Shown: in pieces, positions 41,301 to 51,684 of the stretch
Layout of the letters: each line of letters begins with the position of its first letter
Position numbering within the stretch: the first letter of the stretch is position 1
Assembly: GCA_037200925.1 (NCBI GenBank)
Contig: JBBCGO010000001.1
Location: forward strand, 824,235 to 888,234
DNA length: 64,000 nucleotides
Origin: Candidatus Doudnabacteria bacterium
Lineage (GTDB): Bacteria > Patescibacteriota > Doudnabacteria > UBA920 > O2-02-FULL-48-8
Reading direction: 5' to 3'
Position numbers and translations under genes: made by a program
The notes under the pieces: model-generated
Seen by the model: only the letters and a program-made list of their open reading frames with translations
Told to the model about the DNA's origin: nothing
The model's database searches: none

Positions 41301-41895
41301 TAAAAATAAAAACCGCTTTCTCCTGCTCGGGAGTAGCTAAGATAAATTGAATTCATATTTGGTTTTCCGGCTATACGGTTGCGGCACAGCGGAGGACTTG
41401 CACCTCACTTACCCGAAATGAATTACTTACAGAGTTAAAGAACGTAAACAAATACTAAATCTAAAAAAAAAGCCTGTCAAATCGACAACATAAAAACCAG
41501 GTGAGAGAACCTGGTCTTTATGTGTGTCGAAAGCCGTGCTTGGAAAATTACGATTTTGGTAACTCCAGGTCGTGAGCTTTCAATTTTGGTATCCCCGGTC
41601 CAGAACAAATCTTCGGTGGTTAAGCCTAATGATTGGGTTCCAGGCTGGAAATAAGCGAATTCAAAAAAGCGGTCTTTGTGTTTCAGCAGGGAAGAGAGGC
41701 GATAGGATTAGGTACAAACTTAAACCATCCTTCATATGTTAGGATCGTTTGCTTGTTTATTGCCTGTGCCCTGTAGCCATGTTTTTGTTTTGTCTTTGTT
41801 TCCGCTCGAGTACTTTACTCTATGTACATTATAGCAGAAAAAGTCGGACTTGTCCAGACCCTACGTAAAAAATCTCAAAAACCGGGAAATTTTAC

Positions 41896-43884: not shown

Positions 43885-44268
43885 GGGGCTGCTCAGATTC
43901 GACAGAAGTTCTTTGATAAATATTGCAAGTCCGATTAGCCTAATTTCTCGGTTAAAAAAACAAGGCAAATCATAAATGCCAATTCTTTGGTAAGCAAGGT
44001 TAAGAATGCTTTTGCATTCTCTCCTGCTTTGGCTCTCGCTTAATACGTGAAAGCCCATCCGCCCCGCAAAGTCTGTGCGCGGGATACGGGTGTTATATTA
44101 TCCGGACTCACTTTAGCTGGCGCCTGACGGCTTTAGGACACTAAGGGCTTAACTTAAACCGCTTTCGTCCGTTTTTATGGTTTGAGCCAACAATTCAAGC
44201 GGTCCAAACTTGTAGATATATTTGTTAAAATCTTTTGGACGGGAGTGCAATTCTCCCCAGCTCCACCA
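43885..44268 (+). ncRNA. ssrA: tmRNA (SsrA)
   Basis: 5' GGGGCUGCUCAGAUUCGACAGAAG, 3' ...GGACGGGAGUGCAAUUCUCCCCAGCUCCACCA. Acceptor stem with the G3-U70 wobble, T-arm and CCA. Internal reading frame ...GCU UUU GCA UUC UCU CCU GCU UUG GCU CUC GCU UAA (tag ...AFAFSPALALA). Convergent with smpB. Confidence 0.85.
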
Positions 44269-44282
44269 AATAATTTTATTTT

Positions 44283-44310
44283 AAAAACAGCAGGTATCTG
44301 CTGTTTTTGT
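44283..44310. terminator. Bidirectional terminator shared by ssrA and smpB
   Basis: AAAAACAGCAGgtatCTGCTGTTTTTG. Confidence 0.6.
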
Positions 44311-44759
44311 TATACTCGAGTTCTTACAGTCCGGTCCAGGTTTCGTTTCAGTTCTTTTTTCTTGATGGATTCGCGTTTATCGAATTGTTTTTTGCCTTTT
44401 GCTAAGCCAATTTTGAGTTTGATCAATCCTTTTTTTGTGTAGAGTTCCAGAGGTATTAAAGTCAGGCCTTTTTCTTTGCTCTTAGTCTGCAATCGTTCAA
44501 TTTCTTTTTTATGCAGCAGCAGTTTGCGCTCCCTTGATTCATCATGGCCTTCCAGGTTGGAGGCTTGTTTGTATTTGCCGATGTAAGCATTGCGTAAGAA
44601 ACCTTCCCCGGCCCGAATGGTGACGTAAGCACCGGCTAGGGAAGCCTGGCCGGTCTTGGCGCTTTTCACTTCATGACCGGCCAATACTAAGCCGGCCTCT
44701 ACTGTCTCTTCTATAGAGTAATCATGGAATGCTTTTCTATTTTGGGCCAAAGTCGACAT
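44310..44759 (-). CDS. smpB: SsrA-binding protein SmpB
   Basis: NRKAFHDYSIEETVEAGLVLAGHEVKS...GHDESRERKLLLHKKEI. Confidence 0.9.
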   Translation of the reverse strand: MSTLAQNRKAFHDYSIEETVEAGLVLAGHEVKSAKTGQASLAGAYVTIRAGEGFLRNAYIGKYKQASNLEGHDESRERKLLLHKKEIERLQTKSKEKGLTLIPLELYTKKGLIKLKIGLAKGKKQFDKRESIKKKELKRNLDRTVRTRV

Positions 44760-44782: not shown

Positions 44783-46420
44783 GTGCTTATGTTAATGAGA
44801 GAAAATATAGAAAAACTCGTATTGAAAGCCATTGCTGATTTGGGAATAACAGCTTCAGAGCAATCGATAGTAAAAATTGCCGTTACATACCCAGACCCTA
44901 AACTTGGAGACTATGCTTCCAACGCCGCTTTGATCTTGGCCAAGGAAGCAAAAATAAAGCCTTTGGATTTGGCAAACAAGATAGTAGAAAAATTAGACAA
45001 AAGCCAGTTTGAAAAAGTGGAGGCAGCGGCTCCCGGGTTTATCAATTTTAAACTTAATACCGAGCAGTTGCTACCACCGGCAACCTATGATCTAAAACCT
45101 AAGACCACGGGTAAAATATTGCTTGAGTATTTTCAGCCGAATATTGCCAAACCTTTGCATATGGGGTTATTAAGAAATGTTATTATTGGCGATGCAATCA
45201 AAAGAATGCTTAAATTTTTGGGTTATAAGGTTGAATCCGACACCCATATGGGAGATTGGGGGACGCAGTTTGGATTTTTGATCTTAGCTAAAAAAAAGTT
45301 TGGCGAAGTCAATGAGAAGCTGTATGCAGAACTCAATGCGGATGAAACTCAAAAAGAAGCTGCGAAACAAGAATTTGTAAATCTGGAAAAAGGAGACAAA
45401 GAAAACCGTAAGATCTGGCAAGAGATTGTGGATTCAAGCTTGAAAGAATTTTTGAAAATCAATGATCAGATGGATATTTTACCGTTTGACCACCATTGGC
45501 CTGAAAGTTTTTATCAAGATAAAATGTCTGATATTCTTGAAAAATTAAAAACAAAAAAGCTTCTTAAAGAATCTCAAGGTGCACAGATTGTGAACCTTGA
45601 AACTCAAGGTTTGGGTATAGCGGTGATTGTTAAATCGGATACGGGTACGACCTATCTTTTGCGCGACCTGGCAACATTTATTTATAGAAAAGAAAAATTT
45701 TCGAAACAACTTTATGTCGTTGACAATAGACAATCACACGTGTTCAAGCAATTGTTTGCAATTCTTAAACTATTGGACGAAATTAAAGAAGCTGAAGCTG
45801 TACATATTGATTATGGATTCATTAGTTTCAAAGGGGAAGTGCTCTCAACTCGCAAAGGCAATATGATTCTGGCGGAAGATGTGATTACGCAAGCCGAAGA
45901 GAAGGTTGCAAAAATTATCGCTGAAAAAAATCCCGATCTGAAAAATAAGGAACATGTCATCAAAGCCGTAACCAAAAGCGCGCTGAAATATTTTGACCTC
46001 AAGCACAACCGGCACAGCGATATTGAATTTGATTGGGATGAAGTTCTGGATTTTGAAGGGGACTCCGGGCCCTATTTACAATACGCTTATGCCCGCTTGA
46101 ATAGTATCCTTAAGAAAGCCGGATCTGAAGGCGAATTTTCTGATATCAAATTTTCAGATACAGAACGCGAAATACTTTTCAAATCTTCGATCTTGGCCGA
46201 AGTTGTTGAGGATGCGGCTAAAGATTATCTGCCGAACATTTTGGCCAATTATTTATTTAATTTTGCCACACTTTTGAACAAGTTTTACCATGAAAGCCCG
46301 GTTACCCAAGAAAAAGATGAGGACATTCGCAATTTCCGCTTGGCTTTGATCGCCAAAGCCAAGGGAACTTTGGGCCGGGGATTGGATCTGCTCGGGATCG
46401 AGGCGCTGGACGAGATGTAA
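44783..46420 (+). CDS. argS: Arginine--tRNA ligase
   Basis: Class-I HIGH-type PLHMGLLRNVIIGD, KMSK-like region, C-terminal DALR anticodon-binding region. Confidence 0.9.
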   Translation: MLMLMRENIEKLVLKAIADLGITASEQSIVKIAVTYPDPKLGDYASNAALILAKEAKIKPLDLANKIVEKLDKSQFEKVEAAAPGFINFKLNTEQLLPPATYDLKPKTTGKILLEYFQPNIAKPLHMGLLRNVIIGDAIKRMLKFLGYKVESDTHMGDWGTQFGFLILAKKKFGEVNEKLYAELNADETQKEAAKQEFVNLEKGDKENRKIWQEIVDSSLKEFLKINDQMDILPFDHHWPESFYQDKMSDILEKLKTKKLLKESQGAQIVNLETQGLGIAVIVKSDTGTTYLLRDLATFIYRKEKFSKQLYVVDNRQSHVFKQLFAILKLLDEIKEAEAVHIDYGFISFKGEVLSTRKGNMILAEDVITQAEEKVAKIIAEKNPDLKNKEHVIKAVTKSALKYFDLKHNRHSDIEFDWDEVLDFEGDSGPYLQYAYARLNSILKKAGSEGEFSDIKFSDTEREILFKSSILAEVVEDAAKDYLPNILANYLFNFATLLNKFYHESPVTQEKDEDIRNFRLALIAKAKGTLGRGLDLLGIEALDEM

Positions 46421-46486
46421 CTCTACGTTTTTGCTTACGATTAAAAGAGAGTATACTATTAATTACAGATAATTAACCACAAAAAG

Positions 46487-46795
46487 ATGAAAAAAATCCT
46501 TTTAGCCGCTGCTGCCGTCGTGTTGCTGGCTGCCGCCTGCAACAGCCAGCAGGCGAGCAACCCCCCTCCACCGCCTCCAGTCGCGGCCAATCCGCCTGCT
46601 CCGCAGCCCCCTCCACCGCCCACTCCGCCGGCCAAGCAAAATTCGGCGCAAGACCAGGTCGACGCCACTGTTAATGATCTGAACGCGAGCATTAACAGCG
46701 AGAGTGCAATTAATTCGCAATCAGATGCCGACATCGCGAATTCTGACCAGTCGGTCGTCAATGATTCCAATGGAGTCTTAAATGCAAACTATTAA
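46487..46795 (+). CDS. Pro-rich lipoprotein, hypothetical
   Basis: Lipobox LLAAAC, then PPPPPPVAANPPAPQPPPPPTPP. Confidence 0.45.
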   Translation: MKKILLAAAAVVLLAAACNSQQASNPPPPPPVAANPPAPQPPPPPTPPAKQNSAQDQVDATVNDLNASINSESAINSQSDADIANSDQSVVNDSNGVLNANY

Positions 46796-47543
46796 AAAAA
46801 TTGCAGTCCTCGCTGCGGCTGCAGGCTTGCTCGCAAGCCCCCTGTTTGCTTTAGCTGTCGATACTTCGGTCAACGTTTCAGGGAACGCCAACGTAAATGT
46901 CGGCGCAAATTTTTGCTCCAGAATTAACAGCACTTCCAGCACTCTCAATAATTTGGTAGCCAAACTGCAAAATAATCGCGGCAAGTTCAGATCGCAGATG
47001 CTGCAGTCCTTGAGCAACCGCATCACCAGCCGCGCGTCTTCAGTTGCAAAGATCCGAGCTTCAGCTAAAGGCAACTTTGCCGCTGATATCGCCAAACTTA
47101 ACGCCAAGGCGACAACCGATGCGCAGAAAGCGGCGGTAGCCTCTTTCCAGGTTTCCGTCCAGGCAGCGCAAACTACCCGCCAGCAGGCTATCCAAGCCGC
47201 GATCAGCGCGTACATGACAGCCGTGCAGCAAGAGATCACGAACCGCGAAAACACGGTTCAGACAGCAGCAACCACTTTCCAATCAGCGGTCACCGCAGCT
47301 CTTGCCAAGGCCAAGTCGGACTGCGCCAGCAAGGTGGATTCGCCGACTGCGCGCGCAACTTTTGCCGCCAGTATTTCCAGCGCTAACACTACTTTCAAGG
47401 CTTCCGTGACAGGCCTGGCCACTGGCCAATTGATTGCTTTGGCGCAGACCCGCGACAATGCGATCCAGGCCGCCAACCAAGCTTTCAGAGCCAGTCTGCA
47501 ACAGGCGGTTGTAACGCTTAAAGCCGCATTCGCAACACCGTAA
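46782..47543 (+). CDS. Secreted Ala/Gln/Thr-rich alpha-helical protein, hypothetical
   Basis: Signal peptide followed by low-complexity helical repeats. Overlaps the previous ORF by 14 nt. Confidence 0.4.
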   Translation: MQTIKKIAVLAAAAGLLASPLFALAVDTSVNVSGNANVNVGANFCSRINSTSSTLNNLVAKLQNNRGKFRSQMLQSLSNRITSRASSVAKIRASAKGNFAADIAKLNAKATTDAQKAAVASFQVSVQAAQTTRQQAIQAAISAYMTAVQQEITNRENTVQTAATTFQSAVTAALAKAKSDCASKVDSPTARATFAASISSANTTFKASVTGLATGQLIALAQTRDNAIQAANQAFRASLQQAVVTLKAAFATP

Positions 47544-47558
47544 ATTGATGATTTCAGC

Positions 47559-47590
47559 AAAACGTCCCGGTAATCGGGGCGTTTTTGTTT
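47559..47590 (+). terminator. Rho-independent terminator
   Basis: AAAACGTCCCGgtaatCGGGGCGTTTTTGTTTTTG. Confidence 0.5.
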
Positions 47591-47795
47591 TTGACCGGGA
47601 TTTGTTATAATTGATACAATAATTTAAAGGCGCCAGAGTCGGCGATCAACCGACGAGCCGGTAGAAGAAAACCCATAGAACTACCCGCAAGTCCTGCGTA
47701 ACAGGGCAGAATTAAGAGCCAAATTGGGTTGGTACCTTTCCCGACAAGCCGGGAGAACCCAAAGAAAGTGGCTTTTTATTTTTTCCGCACCATAA
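47591..47795 (+). promoter_or_regulatory. ileS promoter (TTGACC-18-TACAAT) and T-box riboswitch leader (Ile specifier)
   Basis: T-box sequence AAATTGGGTTGGTACC (47721-47736) sits in the 5' arm of a long terminator hairpin (AGCCAAATTGGG...CCCGacaagcCGGG...CCCAAAGAAAGTGGCT) followed by TTTTTATTTTTT. A candidate specifier AUC-A lies in GGCGAUCAACCGAC. A stem-I-like GGTAG...CTACC hairpin is present. Confidence 0.6.
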
Positions 47796-47802
47796 CGAGT
47801 TT

Positions 47803-50800
47803 ATGAAGCAAACTTTTAAACCAATCGATCCGAAGCCTGACTTTCCCAAACTTGAGGAAGAGGTCTTAAAGTTTTGGGAAGACAATCAGATCTTCCAAAA
47901 ATCTTTGGAGCAGACGAAAAACGGCAAGCCGTACGTTTTTTATGACGGCCCGCCGTTTGCTACAGGTACACCGCATTACGGACATATTTTAGGTTCAACT
48001 GTAAAGGACCTGTTTCCGCGCTATCAGACTATGAACGGAAGATTTGTCCGCCGCCGCTGGGGCTGGGACTGCCATGGCCTGCCGATAGAAGAGATAGTTG
48101 AGCGGAAATTGGGGATCTCAGGCAAAAAGGACATTGAGAAGCTGGGCATAAAAAAATTCAACGAAACCTGCCGCTCAATGGTTTTGGAATATGTGGGCGA
48201 GTGGCGGAAGACCATCCGCCGAATTGCGCGCTGGGTTGATTTTGATAATTCTTACAAAACCATGGATCGCGACTACATGGAGTCCGTCTGGTGGGCATTC
48301 AAACAGATCTATGACAAAGGGTTGGTTTACGAAGGCCGCCGGGTGCTTCTTTATTGTCCTCGTTGCGAAACGCCGGTTTCAAATTTTGAAGTGGCTATGG
48401 ATAACAGTTATCAGGAAGTCACAGAAGAAGCGGTAACCGTAAAATTCAAAATCCAAAAGCAGAAGAACACTTATTTATTGGCCTGGACGACCACCCCCTG
48501 GACTTTGCCGGGCAATGTGGCCTTGGCTGTGGGTGCGGATATTGATTACGTAAAAGTTAAAGCAGGCGATGAGTTCTATATTTTGGCAAAAAAAACTGAA
48601 TAAAGACGGGACAATTATTGAAGAATTCAAAGGCTCCAAACTTGTCGGCTTGGAATACGAACCGTTATTTGATGTGCCTGATGTGAGATCAGACAAGTCA
48701 TTTAAAATTTATGCGGCTGACTTTGTGAATACCGAAGACGGCACCGGGGTCGTGCACACGGCCGTGGTTTACGGTGAAGATGACTATGATCTGGGGCTGA
48801 AAGTCGGTTTGCCCGTGGTTCCTTTGCTTGATGAAAAAGGAAAGTTTAATGATAAGGCGCCGAAGTTATTGCAAGGCGTATATTTTAAAGATTCGGAAAA
48901 AATCATTAAGAAAGACCTTGAGGGCAGGGGATTGTTGTTTGCAAAAAATCAGCACAAACATTCTTATCCGCATTGCTGGCGCTGTGGTACGACGCTTTAT
49001 TACAATGCCATCCCGGCCTGGTTCATGAATATCCAAAAGATCAAGAAAGGCCTTTTGGAAACAAATGACAAAGAGATCAACTGGTTCCCCGAGCATCTGA
49101 AACACGGCCGGTACGAAAAAAGCGTGGAAGCAGCCCCTGACTGGAATATTTCCCGCAACCGATACTGGGGCAACCCGATCCCGGTCTGGAAGTGCGAAGA
49201 CGGGCACAATACCGTGGTTGGCAGTATCAAGGATCTGGGTTTGGAAAGAAATACTTTTTATTTTTCAAGACACGGCCAAGCTGACCTGAACCTTACGATG
49301 GTGGCCAGTAATTATCCGGAAATTGTTATCAGCAGCCTGACTGATGAAGGAAAAAAACAAGCCGAAGCATTAGCGAATGACCTCCGGAAGAGCGGTGGTG
49401 TTGATCTGATATTTTCATCTGATTTGAAACGGACAAAGGAGACCGCAGAAATTGTCGGAAAATTACTCGGAGTTAAAGTGGTCGAGGATGAACGACTGAG
49501 GGAATACAATGTCGGCACATATAACGGCAAACCGGACGCTGACTATGACCGCGATTTTCCTGTTGAAGTGCGGTGGGATAAAGCCGCTCCCCAAGGGGAA
49601 ACCTGGAAGCAATTGCAAGAGCGGATGGTTGATTTTACTGAAGAAATCAATAAAAAATATCAAGATAAAAAAATACTCGTTGTTTCGCACGGCGACGCGC
49701 TATGGATGCTACAGAAATATTTTGGGTCAGAGCGAGAATACCCGAAGTTTGGCCAAGTTTTTGAAGTGTCCGTCAGCGTAACGGATCTGCACCGGCCGTA
49801 TATTGATGACATCGTTTTGAAGTGCAAACAATGCGGCAAGGACTCTCATAGAACGCCGGAAATCTTTGATTCCTGGGTGGAGGCCGGTTCCATGCCATTT
49901 GCGGAATATCATTATCCAATTGATCAGAAAGAAACATTTGAGTCACGCTTTCCGGCCCAGTTCATCTCCGAGTATATTGCCCAGACCAGAGCCTGGTTTT
50001 ACGTCATGCATGTCATCTCTTACAATTTATTCGGTAAAGCGCCGTTTGAAAACGTGGCGACCACAGGCACTATTCTGGCTGAAGACGGCGACAAGATGAG
50101 CAAGTCAAAAAATAACTATCCCGACCCTTGGATCGTGATCGATAAATATGGCGTGGATGCCCTGAGATTTTATCTAATGAATTCTTCTGTCATGAACGCT
50201 GACAATTTGAACTTCAGTGAGAAGGAATTGGGGGTTGTTTACCGCAAAAATATTCTGATCCTTTGGAATATTTATAATTATTTTGTGACTTATGCCAATG
50301 AAGCTGATTGGGAGCCGAAGGGACCCGGTTACAAACCGGATTTGACAAATGTTCTGGATCTTTGGATCGTAGCCAAGACACAAGATCTGGTAAACGAAGT
50401 TACGGAGCAGCTGGATAATTACAACACTGTGCGCGCAACGAGAGCGATAGAAAATTATATCAATGAACTTTCGACTTGGTATGTGAGAAGGAGCAGAGGA
50501 CGAAAAGACAGCCATTTCTTCGGTAGCCTCCGCCATGCGCTGATGGTTCTGGCAAAAGTTTCAGCTCCCGTAACGCCTTATCTGTCTGAACTGATCTACA
50601 GCAATTTGAATAAAAATCCGGATGTGATCTCGGTGCATCTGGCCAAGTGGCCGGAAAAGAAAGAGTTGACCGCTGAACAAAAAGAAATCTTGAGCCAGAT
50701 GCAGTTTGTCAGAGAAACGGTGGAACAAGGGCACGCGCTGCGGAAAAGATCAAACATAAAACTGCGCCAGCCTCTGGCCTCGGTTACCTATACGCTTAAA

Positions 50801-51145
50801 GATCAGTTATCAAAAGAATATGAGGATATTTTGGCTGACGAACTGAATGTCAAAGCCGTAAATTTCGGCAGCAAGCTTGAGTTTGATCTGAACATATCCC
50901 CGGAACTCAAAAAAGAAGGCTTAGCGCGCGAACTGGAACGGGCTGTTCAGGATATGCGCAAAAAGTCAGGCTTGCAGGTTGGCGAACAGGCCGATTTATC
51001 GTATGATACAGATGATGATGAATTAAAAGCCGCTTTTGAACTGTTCGACACCAAAAAGACTTATATCGGGAAGATTTCTCGGGAAAAGGGCGGAGAAATC
51101 GTTGAAATAGACGGGAAAAAAGCGGCGATTGCGTTAAAAAAGTGA
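47803..51145 (+). CDS. ileS: Isoleucine--tRNA ligase (eukaryote/archaeal-like type), interrupted by a +1 frameshift in an A8 tract and carrying an inserted histidine-phosphatase (PGM-like) domain
   Basis: HYGH, CP1/editing, KMSKS and C-terminal regions are all present. ORF1 (frame 1) ends ILAKKTE*. ORF2 (frame 2) continues FWQKKLNKDGTIIEEF. The two halves are colinear with a single IleS. Confidence 0.85.
48588..48595 (+). other. A8 homopolymer that is the site of the ileS frameshift
   Basis: GGCAAAAAAAACTG. Removing one A joins ...DEFYILAKK to LNKDGTIIEEFKGSKLVGLEYEPLF in one frame. Confidence 0.7.
49262..49780 (+). other. In-frame histidine-phosphatase (phosphoglycerate-mutase superfamily) domain inserted inside IleS
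   Basis: FSRHGQADLN (RHG motif) ... VVSHGDALWML (second catalytic His). It is flanked by IleS segments ...IPVWKCEDGHNTVVGSIKDLG and VTDLHRPYIDDIVLKCKQCG...FDSWVEAGSMPFAEYHYP, which are contiguous in other IleS proteins. Confidence 0.75.
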
Positions 51146-51684
51146 AATACAAGAAACTTACAGGAATCATCTTAAAGAAACAAAATTACAGGGAAGCCGA
51201 TCAGATTGTCAGCGTTTGGAGCAGGGAAGCCGGGAAAATAAGGGTTTTGGCCAGATCTCTGCGCAAACCTGCCAGTAAGCTTAACTATGCCATGCAGGAC
51301 CTGTCCGAAGTTGAGATTTTTGTTGCAGGCAATCATTTGCCGACCTTGATCGGGGCCAAACCCATCCGGCAATTCAAGAGCCTGGTCCAAGATCTGAAAA
51401 AGACGGCAATTGCGTTCTACGCTTCAGAGTTAATGCTGAAAATGACCGCTGACGAACATCCAAATCCGCCAGCCTATGATCTGCTCTCTGATTTTTTGGG
51501 CAAACTGGAAGAGCAATCAGCGGTAAATGATTATTTTTTGATCGACGGCTTTGCTTTGGGTTTGGCTTCCGTATTAGGATTTGGTTCTCCCAAGAAATCC
51601 AATTCTCACATTGACGTTAACAGGTTTATCGAATATATCATCGAGCGCAACGTTAAATCCGAACCATTCTTAATTTCAGTTTAA
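51142..51684 (+). CDS. recO: DNA repair protein RecO (short form)
   Basis: N-terminal OB-fold pattern TGIILKKQNYREADQIVSVWSREAGKIRVLARSLRK. YASELMLKMT helical region. Start overlaps the ileS stop (ATGA). Confidence 0.6.
   Translation: MKYKKLTGIILKKQNYREADQIVSVWSREAGKIRVLARSLRKPASKLNYAMQDLSEVEIFVAGNHLPTLIGAKPIRQFKSLVQDLKKTAIAFYASELMLKMTADEHPNPPAYDLLSDFLGKLEEQSAVNDYFLIDGFALGLASVLGFGSPKKSNSHIDVNRFIEYIIERNVKSEPFLISV

Follow-up and report, generated by a model that had tools for sequence, protein, structure and literature searches.

A stretch of 64,000 nucleotides from a Candidatus Doudnabacteria genome (contig JBBCGO010000001.1, positions 824,235 to 888,234; hereafter the window) encodes a complete, apparently active histidine phosphatase that lies in frame inside an isoleucyl-tRNA synthetase (IleRS). 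The IleRS gene, ileS, occupies positions 47803-51145 of the plus strand of the window as two overlapping open reading frames (ORFs) of 266 and 858 aa. The insertion point is the loop that joins the two zinc-knuckle elements in the type-2 IleRS catalytic domain, and the reading frame is kept across it.

Position and boundaries of the insert

The features of the gene, in window coordinates, are as follows.

47803-48603, plus strand: ileS 5′ ORF, 266 aa, with the N-terminal Rossmann half carrying HIGH and the start of the CP1 editing domain (Pfam tRNA-synt_1, E = 3.8e-69)
47974-47985, plus strand: HIGH motif (HYGH), in the 5′ ORF
48487-48504, plus strand: CP1 editing motif TTTPWT, in the 5′ ORF
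48569-51145, plus strand: ileS 3′ ORF, 858 aa, with the remainder of CP1, the second Rossmann half and phosphatase insert, KMSKS, the anticodon-binding domain and DUF5915
48588-48595, plus strand: A8 homopolymer, the point of the ileS frame shift (+1 frame change); deletion of one A gives a 1113-aa IleRS
49190-49207, plus strand: first zinc-knuckle element, KCEDGH, degenerate (CxxC in relatives), upstream of the insertion point
49241-49783, plus strand: inserted segment, 181 aa (LERNTFYF...EVSVSVT), delimited against the empty sites of P0002/L171 and L084
49259-49777, plus strand: His_Phos_1 (PF00300) match, residues 231-403 of the 3′ ORF (E = 6.7e-37)
49268-49276, plus strand: RHG motif, with Arg234, the catalytic nucleophile His235 and Gly236; at least 97% kept (67 full-length homologues) and invariant in alignment A1
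49430-49432, plus strand: second phosphate-binding Arg, Arg288 of LKRTKETA, invariant in homologue alignments
49502-49504, plus strand: candidate proton donor, Glu312 of LREYNVG, invariant in homologue alignments
49688-49690, plus strand: second catalytic His, His374 of VVSHGD, invariant in homologue alignments
49820-49837, plus strand: second zinc-knuckle element, KCKQCG, downstream of the insertion point
50093-50107, plus strand: KMSKS motif, in the 3′ ORF

A sequence-only reading of this DNA had proposed a histidine-phosphatase domain at 49262-49780, and that interval on its own matches His_Phos_1 (E = 2.8e-37). In the complete 3′ ORF the match scores 127.5 bits, against a gathering cut-off of 21.7, and covers positions 2-177 of the 194 in the profile; it stands between two stretches of tRNA-synt_1, which are followed by Anticodon_1 and DUF5915. 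Both catalytic signatures recognized in that reading are present, RHGQADLN at 49268-49291 and VVSHGD at 49679-49696. The Pfam search and the alignment with IleRS structures that it had suggested matched both His_Phos_1 and tRNA-synt_1, and mapped the insertion point on P. megaterium IleRS2 (8c8u). Residues 8-224 of the 3′ ORF align with chain residues 262-475 and residues 405-777 with 486-858, so approximately 180 residues in the window protein replace about 10 in IleRS2. The window protein thus differs from IleRS2 in carrying an enzyme domain of about 180 aa at residues 475-486 of the latter, as well as in its degenerate first knuckle (CEDGH) and its frameshifted gene. KCEDGH and KCKQCG would be the counterpart of the zinc site of T. 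thermophilus IleRS (Cys461/464 and Cys502/504).

The two flanking IleRS segments, GSIKDLG (49220-49240) and DLHRPYIDD (49784-49810), had been described as nearly contiguous in other type-2 IleRS. This is the case: in addition to the approximately 10 residues of P. megaterium IleRS2, only 4 residues separate them in the relative P0002 (GSVKELG-QDLQ-DLHRPYIDE, where the window has GSIKDLG, 181 aa and DLHRPYIDD). The flanks of P0002 share 83% and 81% aa identity with those of the window (73-79% for the DNA). The insert-less junction form of IleRS can be written as GSIKDLGQDLQDLH, and the empty site of L084 reads GSIKELEKLSSVKVTDLHKHFIDKI. A relative with 82% identity has an empty site, which shows that gain or loss of the domain is still ongoing at short evolutionary range. 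The insert of the window is about 21 aa shorter at its C-terminal end than most, a short form that it has in common with P0009.

P0002/L171 is the closest relative found (L171: JGI 3300015053, contig Ga0137405_1310175, approximately 660-720), with the empty insertion site GSVKELGQDLQDLHRPYIDE; the contig itself carries several frameshifts. Also present in the window is a 7-nt direct repeat, GGATCTG, at both insert junctions (49231-49237 and 49783-49789). Its rough chance expectation is about 0.05 and the empty-site relative is unlike the product of a simple repeat-mediated deletion, and the repeat is not used as evidence here.

The synthetase around the insert is a type-2 isoleucyl-tRNA synthetase that retains its HIGH, KMSKS and editing motifs. 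Its best sequence match (E = 3e-133) is to type-2 IleRS, the eukaryote- and archaea-like, mupirocin-resistant type that includes P. megaterium IleRS2 (8c8u/8c9d) and T. thermophilus IleRS (1ile), and the likeness extends to the intact HIGH, KMSKS and CP1 motifs and the DUF5915 C-terminal domain. These structures and yeast IleRS are the closest in the PDB, and type-1 IleRS rank behind them. With the IleRS equivalog model TIGR00392, the 3′ ORF alone scores 478 bits (cut-off 621.4), a value for a protein that is missing its N-terminal 255 residues and is broken up by the insert.

The sequence-only reading placed the insert in a "second ileS ORF". The insert does lie there, but this ORF is separate only through the frameshift at the A8 homopolymer, which that reading missed. 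Once repaired, the 1113-aa IleRS reads ...YILAKKLNKDGT... across the frameshift. A Logan contig from run SRR28211699 has the identical split into 266 and 858 aa. The frame of relatives is intact, and P0010 reads through the corresponding region. The split may reflect an error in the homopolymer, a genuine frameshift that slippage rescues, or a pseudogene. It lies 650 nt upstream of the phosphatase insert and is unrelated to it.

The frameshift, together with the same split in the Logan assembly, raises the question of whether the architecture is an artefact or a degenerate element, that is, an assembly chimera, an intein or other mobile insertion, or a local ileS pseudogene. We regard this as very improbable, because at least 160 independent species genomes have this in-frame architecture, GC content is smooth with no break at either insert junction, the catalytic residues are kept, and the HIGH, KMSKS and editing motifs are intact. 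An assembly chimera was rejected on the first two of these grounds. An intein or mobile element was rejected as well, given that there is no Hint or intein Pfam match and that the junctions, which read G/LERN and SVT/DLH, have neither a Cys or Ser on the N-terminal side nor HN followed by Cys, Ser or Thr on the C-terminal side; this agrees with the earlier view of a stable in-frame domain insertion without intein motifs. Nor is the segment a normal lineage-specific part of IleRS, an outcome that the sequence-only reading had allowed for alongside a chimera: it matches His_Phos_1, and relatives have empty sites.

Fold and family of the insert

An AlphaFold2 model of the repaired full-length IleRS, made with 118 homologues, has a mean predicted local distance difference test (pLDDT) value of 92.7 and a predicted template modelling score (pTM) of 0.86. 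In Foldseek, the best match of the whole model is 8c9d (E = 6e-87, TM score 0.79), and the yeast IleRS-tRNA complex 8wnd and 1ile are matched as well. The insert (full-length residues 480-658) has pLDDT values mostly of 85-97. When modelled with short flanks, it matches, with Foldseek probability 1.00, Rv2419c GpgP, B. stearothermophilus PhoE (TM score 0.68-0.71), Hydrogenobacter PspA and a riboflavin-pathway HFP. According to the model, the insert is a confidently predicted His_Phos-type domain inside an otherwise normal type-2 IleRS.

By sequence, the solved proteins nearest to the insert are PspA and PhoE (E ~ 1e-12). The insert has in common with the PhoE, PspA, GpgP and CobC phosphatases (PDB 1h2e, 4ij5 and 4qih) the fold, the RHG...H catalytic set and the size, but it is only 22-29% identical to them and occurs within class Ia synthetases or in an operon with them. 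Its best NCBIfam match is the phosphatase half of the bifunctional RNase H/acid phosphatase (91.6 bits, against a cut-off of 326), ahead of archaeal 2,3-bisphosphoglycerate-dependent phosphoglycerate mutase (dPGM; 87 against 225), CobC (83 against 163) and pgm_1 (37 against 81.7). The RNase H/acid phosphatase (NF005567; Rv2228c type) likewise joins a PhoE/CobC-like phosphatase to a nucleic-acid enzyme, but there the fusion is terminal and not an insertion, the partner is another one, and the score of the window domain is far below the cut-off.

The insert falls below the cut-offs of the dPGM equivalog models (TIGR01258, NF038349 and others). The phosphoglycerate mutase signature after the catalytic Glu is ERHYG, and the corresponding segment of the insert is EYNVG. 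As judged from these comparisons, the insert is a PhoE/CobC-like branch-1 histidine phosphatase and not a phosphoglycerate mutase, and such domains may have been mis-scored as phosphoglycerate mutases in metabolic reconstructions of the Candidate Phyla Radiation.

Some histidine-phosphatase domains act on proteins. The C-terminal domain of mycobacterial MutT1, for instance, dephosphorylates sensor kinases (PMC12407098). The insert could be a protein phosphatase that undoes an inhibitory phosphorylation which, for example, HipA-like toxin kinases place on the synthetase or a partner, or it could remove phosphate from phospho-His as SixA and the MutT1 C-terminal domain do. A weak likeness to SixA (30.6 bits, against 74.5) is in line with this possibility, and protein substrates are documented for the superfamily (PMC12407098). 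However, the best matches of the insert are small-molecule phosphatases (PhoE, PspA, GpgP and CobC) and no kinase partner was seen in the neighbourhoods examined, which makes a protein substrate improbable.

Spread and conservation

A search with the insert and both of its flanks returned many Patescibacteria IleRS fragments annotated with PF00133 and PF00300. The sequence-only reading had called for a search for other genomes with the same insertion, and a scan of one genome per GTDB species found the same-site domain in at least 160 species-level Patescibacteria genomes. The names of the carriers, according to the record titles, include Yanofsky-, Nomura-, Taylor-, Colwell-, Wolfe- and Zambryskibacteria, Paceibacterota and Minisyncoccia. 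In 66 of the 80 insert-carrying loci that were fetched, ileS is a single uninterrupted frame of 1100-1283 aa. An exhaustive profile search over 1.84 billion cluster representatives yielded 575 clusters (50% identity) at E <= 1e-30, most of them proteins of about 1150-1200 aa that are matched around residues 470-720. The architecture is thus not rare, and hundreds of public Patescibacteria genomes deposited from 2015 onward contain it.

In a 67-sequence alignment, at least 97% of sequences share the Arg and His of RHG, an Asn, the second Arg, the Glu, one more Arg and the second His, and Arg234, His235, Arg288, Glu312 and His374 are invariant in alignment A1 (11 homologues). Mean pairwise identity in the 67-sequence alignment is 0.385 for the insert, 0.41 for the anticodon-binding region and 0.54 for the catalytic core. 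An enzyme domain under purifying selection has this pattern of conservation.

None of the 120 best matches to the IleRS query reaches 581 aa, whereas the genome collection contains full-length homologues of 1100-1280 aa. The few short matches that were traced to their contigs (L002 and L003) come from a frameshifted ileS, and match lengths from this search are not to be taken as gene lengths. NCBI labels these proteins only as "class I tRNA ligase family protein", and the insert appears to push their scores below the IleRS equivalog threshold. Two fragments that start just before RHG (P0026 and P0069) were considered as candidates for a naturally split IleRS with a phosphatase-led C-terminal subunit. 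This candidate was rejected, given that the fragments stem from multiply frameshifted contigs (ileS in three pieces in L002 and four in L003), whose names suggest long-read assemblies, and that a single frame is present in the 66 of 80 genomes mentioned above.

The view that the architecture is undescribed stands in part. A literature search across 8 million full texts found no published description of an IleRS or other aminoacyl-tRNA synthetase with a histidine phosphatase, and a 2026 survey of domain insertions makes no mention of this architecture. However, it is widespread, and an IleRS with an extra small-molecule-modifying enzyme domain has already been curated by NCBI as NF040702 ("ileS_w_GNAT", isoleucine--tRNA ligase, N-acetyltransferase domain-containing). 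That protein has an inserted GNAT domain and belongs to another lineage; a Pfam scan found no GNAT domain in the window IleRS, which scores 164 bits with NF040702 against a cut-off of 1999.

Free-standing and fused forms of the phosphatase

The window ileS belongs to a conserved argS-(phosphatase)-ileS-recO block, of which the other members in the window are the following.

44783-46420, plus strand: argS, the upstream member
51142-51684, plus strand: recO, the downstream member

In most related Patescibacteria, an orthologous phosphatase (about 45% identity) is a free-standing gene of about 190 aa in this block, between argS and ileS. P0254 is a free phosphatase of 189 aa that is encoded between argS and an insert-less 931-aa ileS, 1 nt upstream of the ileS start, in the order smpB...argS-phosphatase-ileS-recO, i.e., with the same synteny as the window. 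L084 has argS, the phosphatase, ileS with no insert, and recO, and the free phosphatase P0266 overlaps the argS stop. Metagenome contigs were scanned with an alignment of four free forms, with neighbours classed by phmmer. The phosphatase is free-standing in 75 of the 80 loci found in this way, inside IleS in 4, and fused to the arginyl-tRNA synthetase (ArgRS) in 1. Among the free-standing loci both argS and ileS are visible in 57, argS only in 9 and ileS only in 6, and the contig is too short in 3. At these metagenome loci the ileS open frame starts at a median distance of -1 nt from where the phosphatase frame ends. The ArgRS fusion (L126 3381-5567, metagenome contig Ga0272448_1005190) has the phosphatase in frame on the C-terminus of ArgRS, in a 729-aa open frame, with ileS directly downstream of it.

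The free and inserted states appear to exclude one another. No extra free phosphatase copy was found within 4 kb at any of 81 inserted loci (80 genomes and the window), and in the window the argS-ileS slot has no phosphatase gene and no additional free phosphatase was found across all 64 kb. The window insert is equally similar to inserted and free forms (40-46% identity). One orthologous phosphatase that is free in the operon, inside IleRS, or on ArgRS constitutes a Rosetta-stone relationship. Because these states are orthologous and a free copy is absent where the domain is inserted, we interpret the window protein as a bifunctional IleRS-phosphatase and not as a mobile or decaying element.

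The slot that the free-standing gene occupies in relatives is filled in the window by a GC-rich block (46400-47600, 0.54-0.59 compared with about 0.43 around it), with long antisense ORFs and two Ala/Pro-rich ORFs, of 102 aa and 253 aa, that have no Pfam match. Directly upstream of argS, a tmRNA gene (tag ANSLVSKVKNAFAFSPALALA) adjoins smpB; the pair covers 43885-44268 on the plus strand and 44310-44759 on the minus strand.

Phosphatase insertions at other sites

Histidine phosphatases have also entered class Ia synthetases elsewhere. Four IleRS (P0162, P0190, P0207 and P0242) have two or three His_Phos domains at other surface sites, namely downstream of the second zinc knuckle, ahead of the ...DFIAEG.DQTRGWF motif and where the anticodon-binding domain begins. 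A valyl-tRNA synthetase (ValRS; P0121, L172 366-3851; NCBIfam 411 bits) has four His_Phos domains; it is encoded on a contig of 2x coverage, and the protein appears truncated. A profile of the other-site inserts (A4), applied in a search for additional fusion partners, retrieved nothing but generic stand-alone PhoE-like proteins, which JGI labels "broad specificity phosphatase PhoE". The resemblance of the other-site domains to generic PhoE-type proteins suggests that they were captured independently.

Two further proteins have other enzyme-like inserts as well. P0251 is an IleRS with a phosphatase and a P-loop kinase-like insert (residues approximately 735-905, Walker A GACGAGKTT), which scores 32.4 bits with AAA_18 (against 29.4) and 27.3 with AAA_33 (against 27), and weakly matches the RNA-repair kinase Pnkp1 (E = 0.067). 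The IleRS frame of L089 (5101-9198, Logan SRR13356407) is at least 1300 aa long and is open across the stretch translated, only with genetic code 25. Its apparent fragmentation is explained by that code (UGA = Gly, with 10 in-frame UGA codons) and not by gene decay. In this protein, a NUDIX insert precedes the editing-domain motif and the anticodon-binding domain contains a His_Phos domain; the site used in the window is empty. Among the IleRS examined the NUDIX co-insert is confined to the L089/P0100 lineage, and a Pfam scan found no NUDIX box (PF00293) in the window IleRS. The pairing itself has a precedent in mycobacterial MutT1, which consists of an N-terminal NUDIX and a C-terminal RHG histidine-phosphatase domain (PMC11784022, PMC12407098); unlike the window protein, which lacks NUDIX, MutT1 is no synthetase, and it has a SixA-like C-terminal domain.

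The co-inserts bring to mind an RNA-repair toolkit, which the NUDIX and P-loop kinase domains of other lineages would complete. In this scenario, the phosphatase would be a tRNA 3′-end healing or anti-toxin module that removes a blocking 3′-phosphate, or the terminal phosphate of a 3′-pyrophosphate, that toxSAS-type toxins or nucleases have left on tRNA, and so allows charging. The HD domain of the E. coli CCA-adding enzyme has phosphatase and 2′,3′-cyclic phosphodiesterase activity. Three class Ia synthetases are involved (IleRS, ValRS and ArgRS) and tRNA is their common macromolecular ligand; the P0251 co-insert reaches the AAA_33 cut-off and weakly resembles Pnkp1; NUDIX is co-inserted in L089; and the best NCBIfam match of the window insert is to the phosphatase half of the RNase H fusion. 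Toxins that block the CCA end do exist, as toxSAS toxins pyrophosphorylate it and prevent aminoacylation (10.1101/2021.04.30.441581; PMC11559606). However, the kinase matches are marginal, some inserts are in the anticodon-binding domain, far from the acceptor end, and free forms are found too, and several copies per protein are left unexplained by end healing. To our knowledge, no branch-1 histidine phosphatase acts on RNA ends. We therefore consider it unlikely that the class Ia synthetases have a dedicated phosphatase that unblocks the tRNA 3′ end, or that reverses toxin phosphorylation of the synthetase, as a layer of quality control or immunity within the charging enzymes.

A simpler possibility is co-expression only. 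Compact genomes often fuse neighbouring genes, and a housekeeping small-molecule phosphatase or mutase-like enzyme beside ileS could have been fused to it neutrally. The free gene is part of a housekeeping block (smpB, infC, rplT, argS, ileS and recO), a close relative thrives without the insert, the stand-alone proteins found with the other-site profile carry the broad-specificity PhoE label, and there is a weak likeness to archaeal dPGM (87-102 bits, against a cut-off of 225). However, repeated independent insertions (at least four IleRS sites, ValRS with four copies, and ArgRS) are hard to account for by chance adjacency, the dPGM equivalog cut-offs are missed, and EYNVG replaces the ERHYG of mutases. 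Co-expression alone is, in our opinion, unlikely.

Possible function

We suspect that the phosphatase has a role connected with tRNA charging, and the mechanism that we propose has three steps. First, the insert would be an active phosphomonoesterase that works via a phospho-histidine intermediate on His235, as predicted from the Arg, His, Asn, Arg, Glu, Arg and His residues that are kept at 97% or more despite 38% identity across inserts. Second, its activity would be coupled to class Ia aminoacylation, because the operon is conserved, the free and inserted states are exclusive, insertions occurred independently at several IleRS sites and in ValRS, and there is a fusion to ArgRS. Judging from these patterns, we find it probable that both steps hold and that an active phosphomonoesterase is tied to class Ia aminoacylation.

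The third step is the weakest. The phosphatase may act on a diffusible ligand or by-product of the synthetase reaction, of nucleotide type, and take off a terminal phosphate, with adenine nucleotides, ApnA breakdown products and possibly pyrophosphate as candidate substrates, and co-localization and co-expression would then be needed more than a precise geometry. We suggest this because attachment varies (four IleRS sites, a free form and the ArgRS tail) and NUDIX and P-loop kinase-like co-inserts occur elsewhere, and because the nearest characterized relatives act on small phosphoesters and MutT1 pairs NUDIX with an RHG phosphatase. A nucleotide or other small-molecule substrate is our first choice, possible rather than probable. 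A role in editing is unlikely, given that aminoacyl-adenylates and aminoacyl-tRNA esters are not phosphomonoesters. The three steps together are the explanation that we favour overall, which we hold with slightly more doubt than belief.

Several observations weigh against it. The relative with 82% identity lacks the insert, and thus IleRS does not depend on the phosphatase in cis. In the window, ileS is frameshifted, so expression of an IleRS-phosphatase fusion is not assured here. In a crude neighbour-joining tree the free and inserted groups are adjacent and partly interleaved, which favours neither as the ancestral state. The insert misses every equivalog cut-off in the NCBIfam scan. Operon membership in tiny genomes can mean co-expression alone, and the resemblance of the other-site domains to generic PhoE fits opportunistic capture as well as it fits a shared specialized function. 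Finally, a phosphatase that degrades adenine nucleotides beside an ATP-consuming enzyme is without obvious benefit.

Aminoacyl-tRNA synthetases are among the best-studied enzymes, and time and again their extra catalytic domains, such as editing domains and those appended in eukaryotes, have led to new biology. In the present case, an apparently active phosphatase is kept attached, physically or genetically, to IleRS across a whole bacterial radiation, and sporadically to ValRS and ArgRS, which points to an undescribed partnership between phosphatases and tRNA-charging enzymes. If end healing or toxin reversal were to prove true, the charging enzymes themselves would contain a form of quality control or immunity not known before. 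The free gene, the fusion and the insertion, together with the natural empty-site relative, provide a ready-made experimental series on tRNA charging in minimal genomes.

Other features of the window

An AdoCbl-II (cobalamin) riboswitch aptamer is present at 41352-41429 on the minus strand (43.7 bits, against a gathering cut-off of 36.5). It is notable in a bacterium with a reduced genome, and is of interest here as CobC-type phosphatases are relatives of the insert.

A group I intron is found at 1432-1663 on the plus strand (Rfam, 57.9 bits), with flanks at approximately 1340-1710, and is directly followed by a tRNA 3′ half (GGTTCGAATCC...GCCA). There appears to be an intron-split tRNA gene at approximately 1340-1710 that ARAGORN did not call. 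The ORF before the intron ends in ...LICANCHRELHAG and resembles an HNH homing endonuclease.

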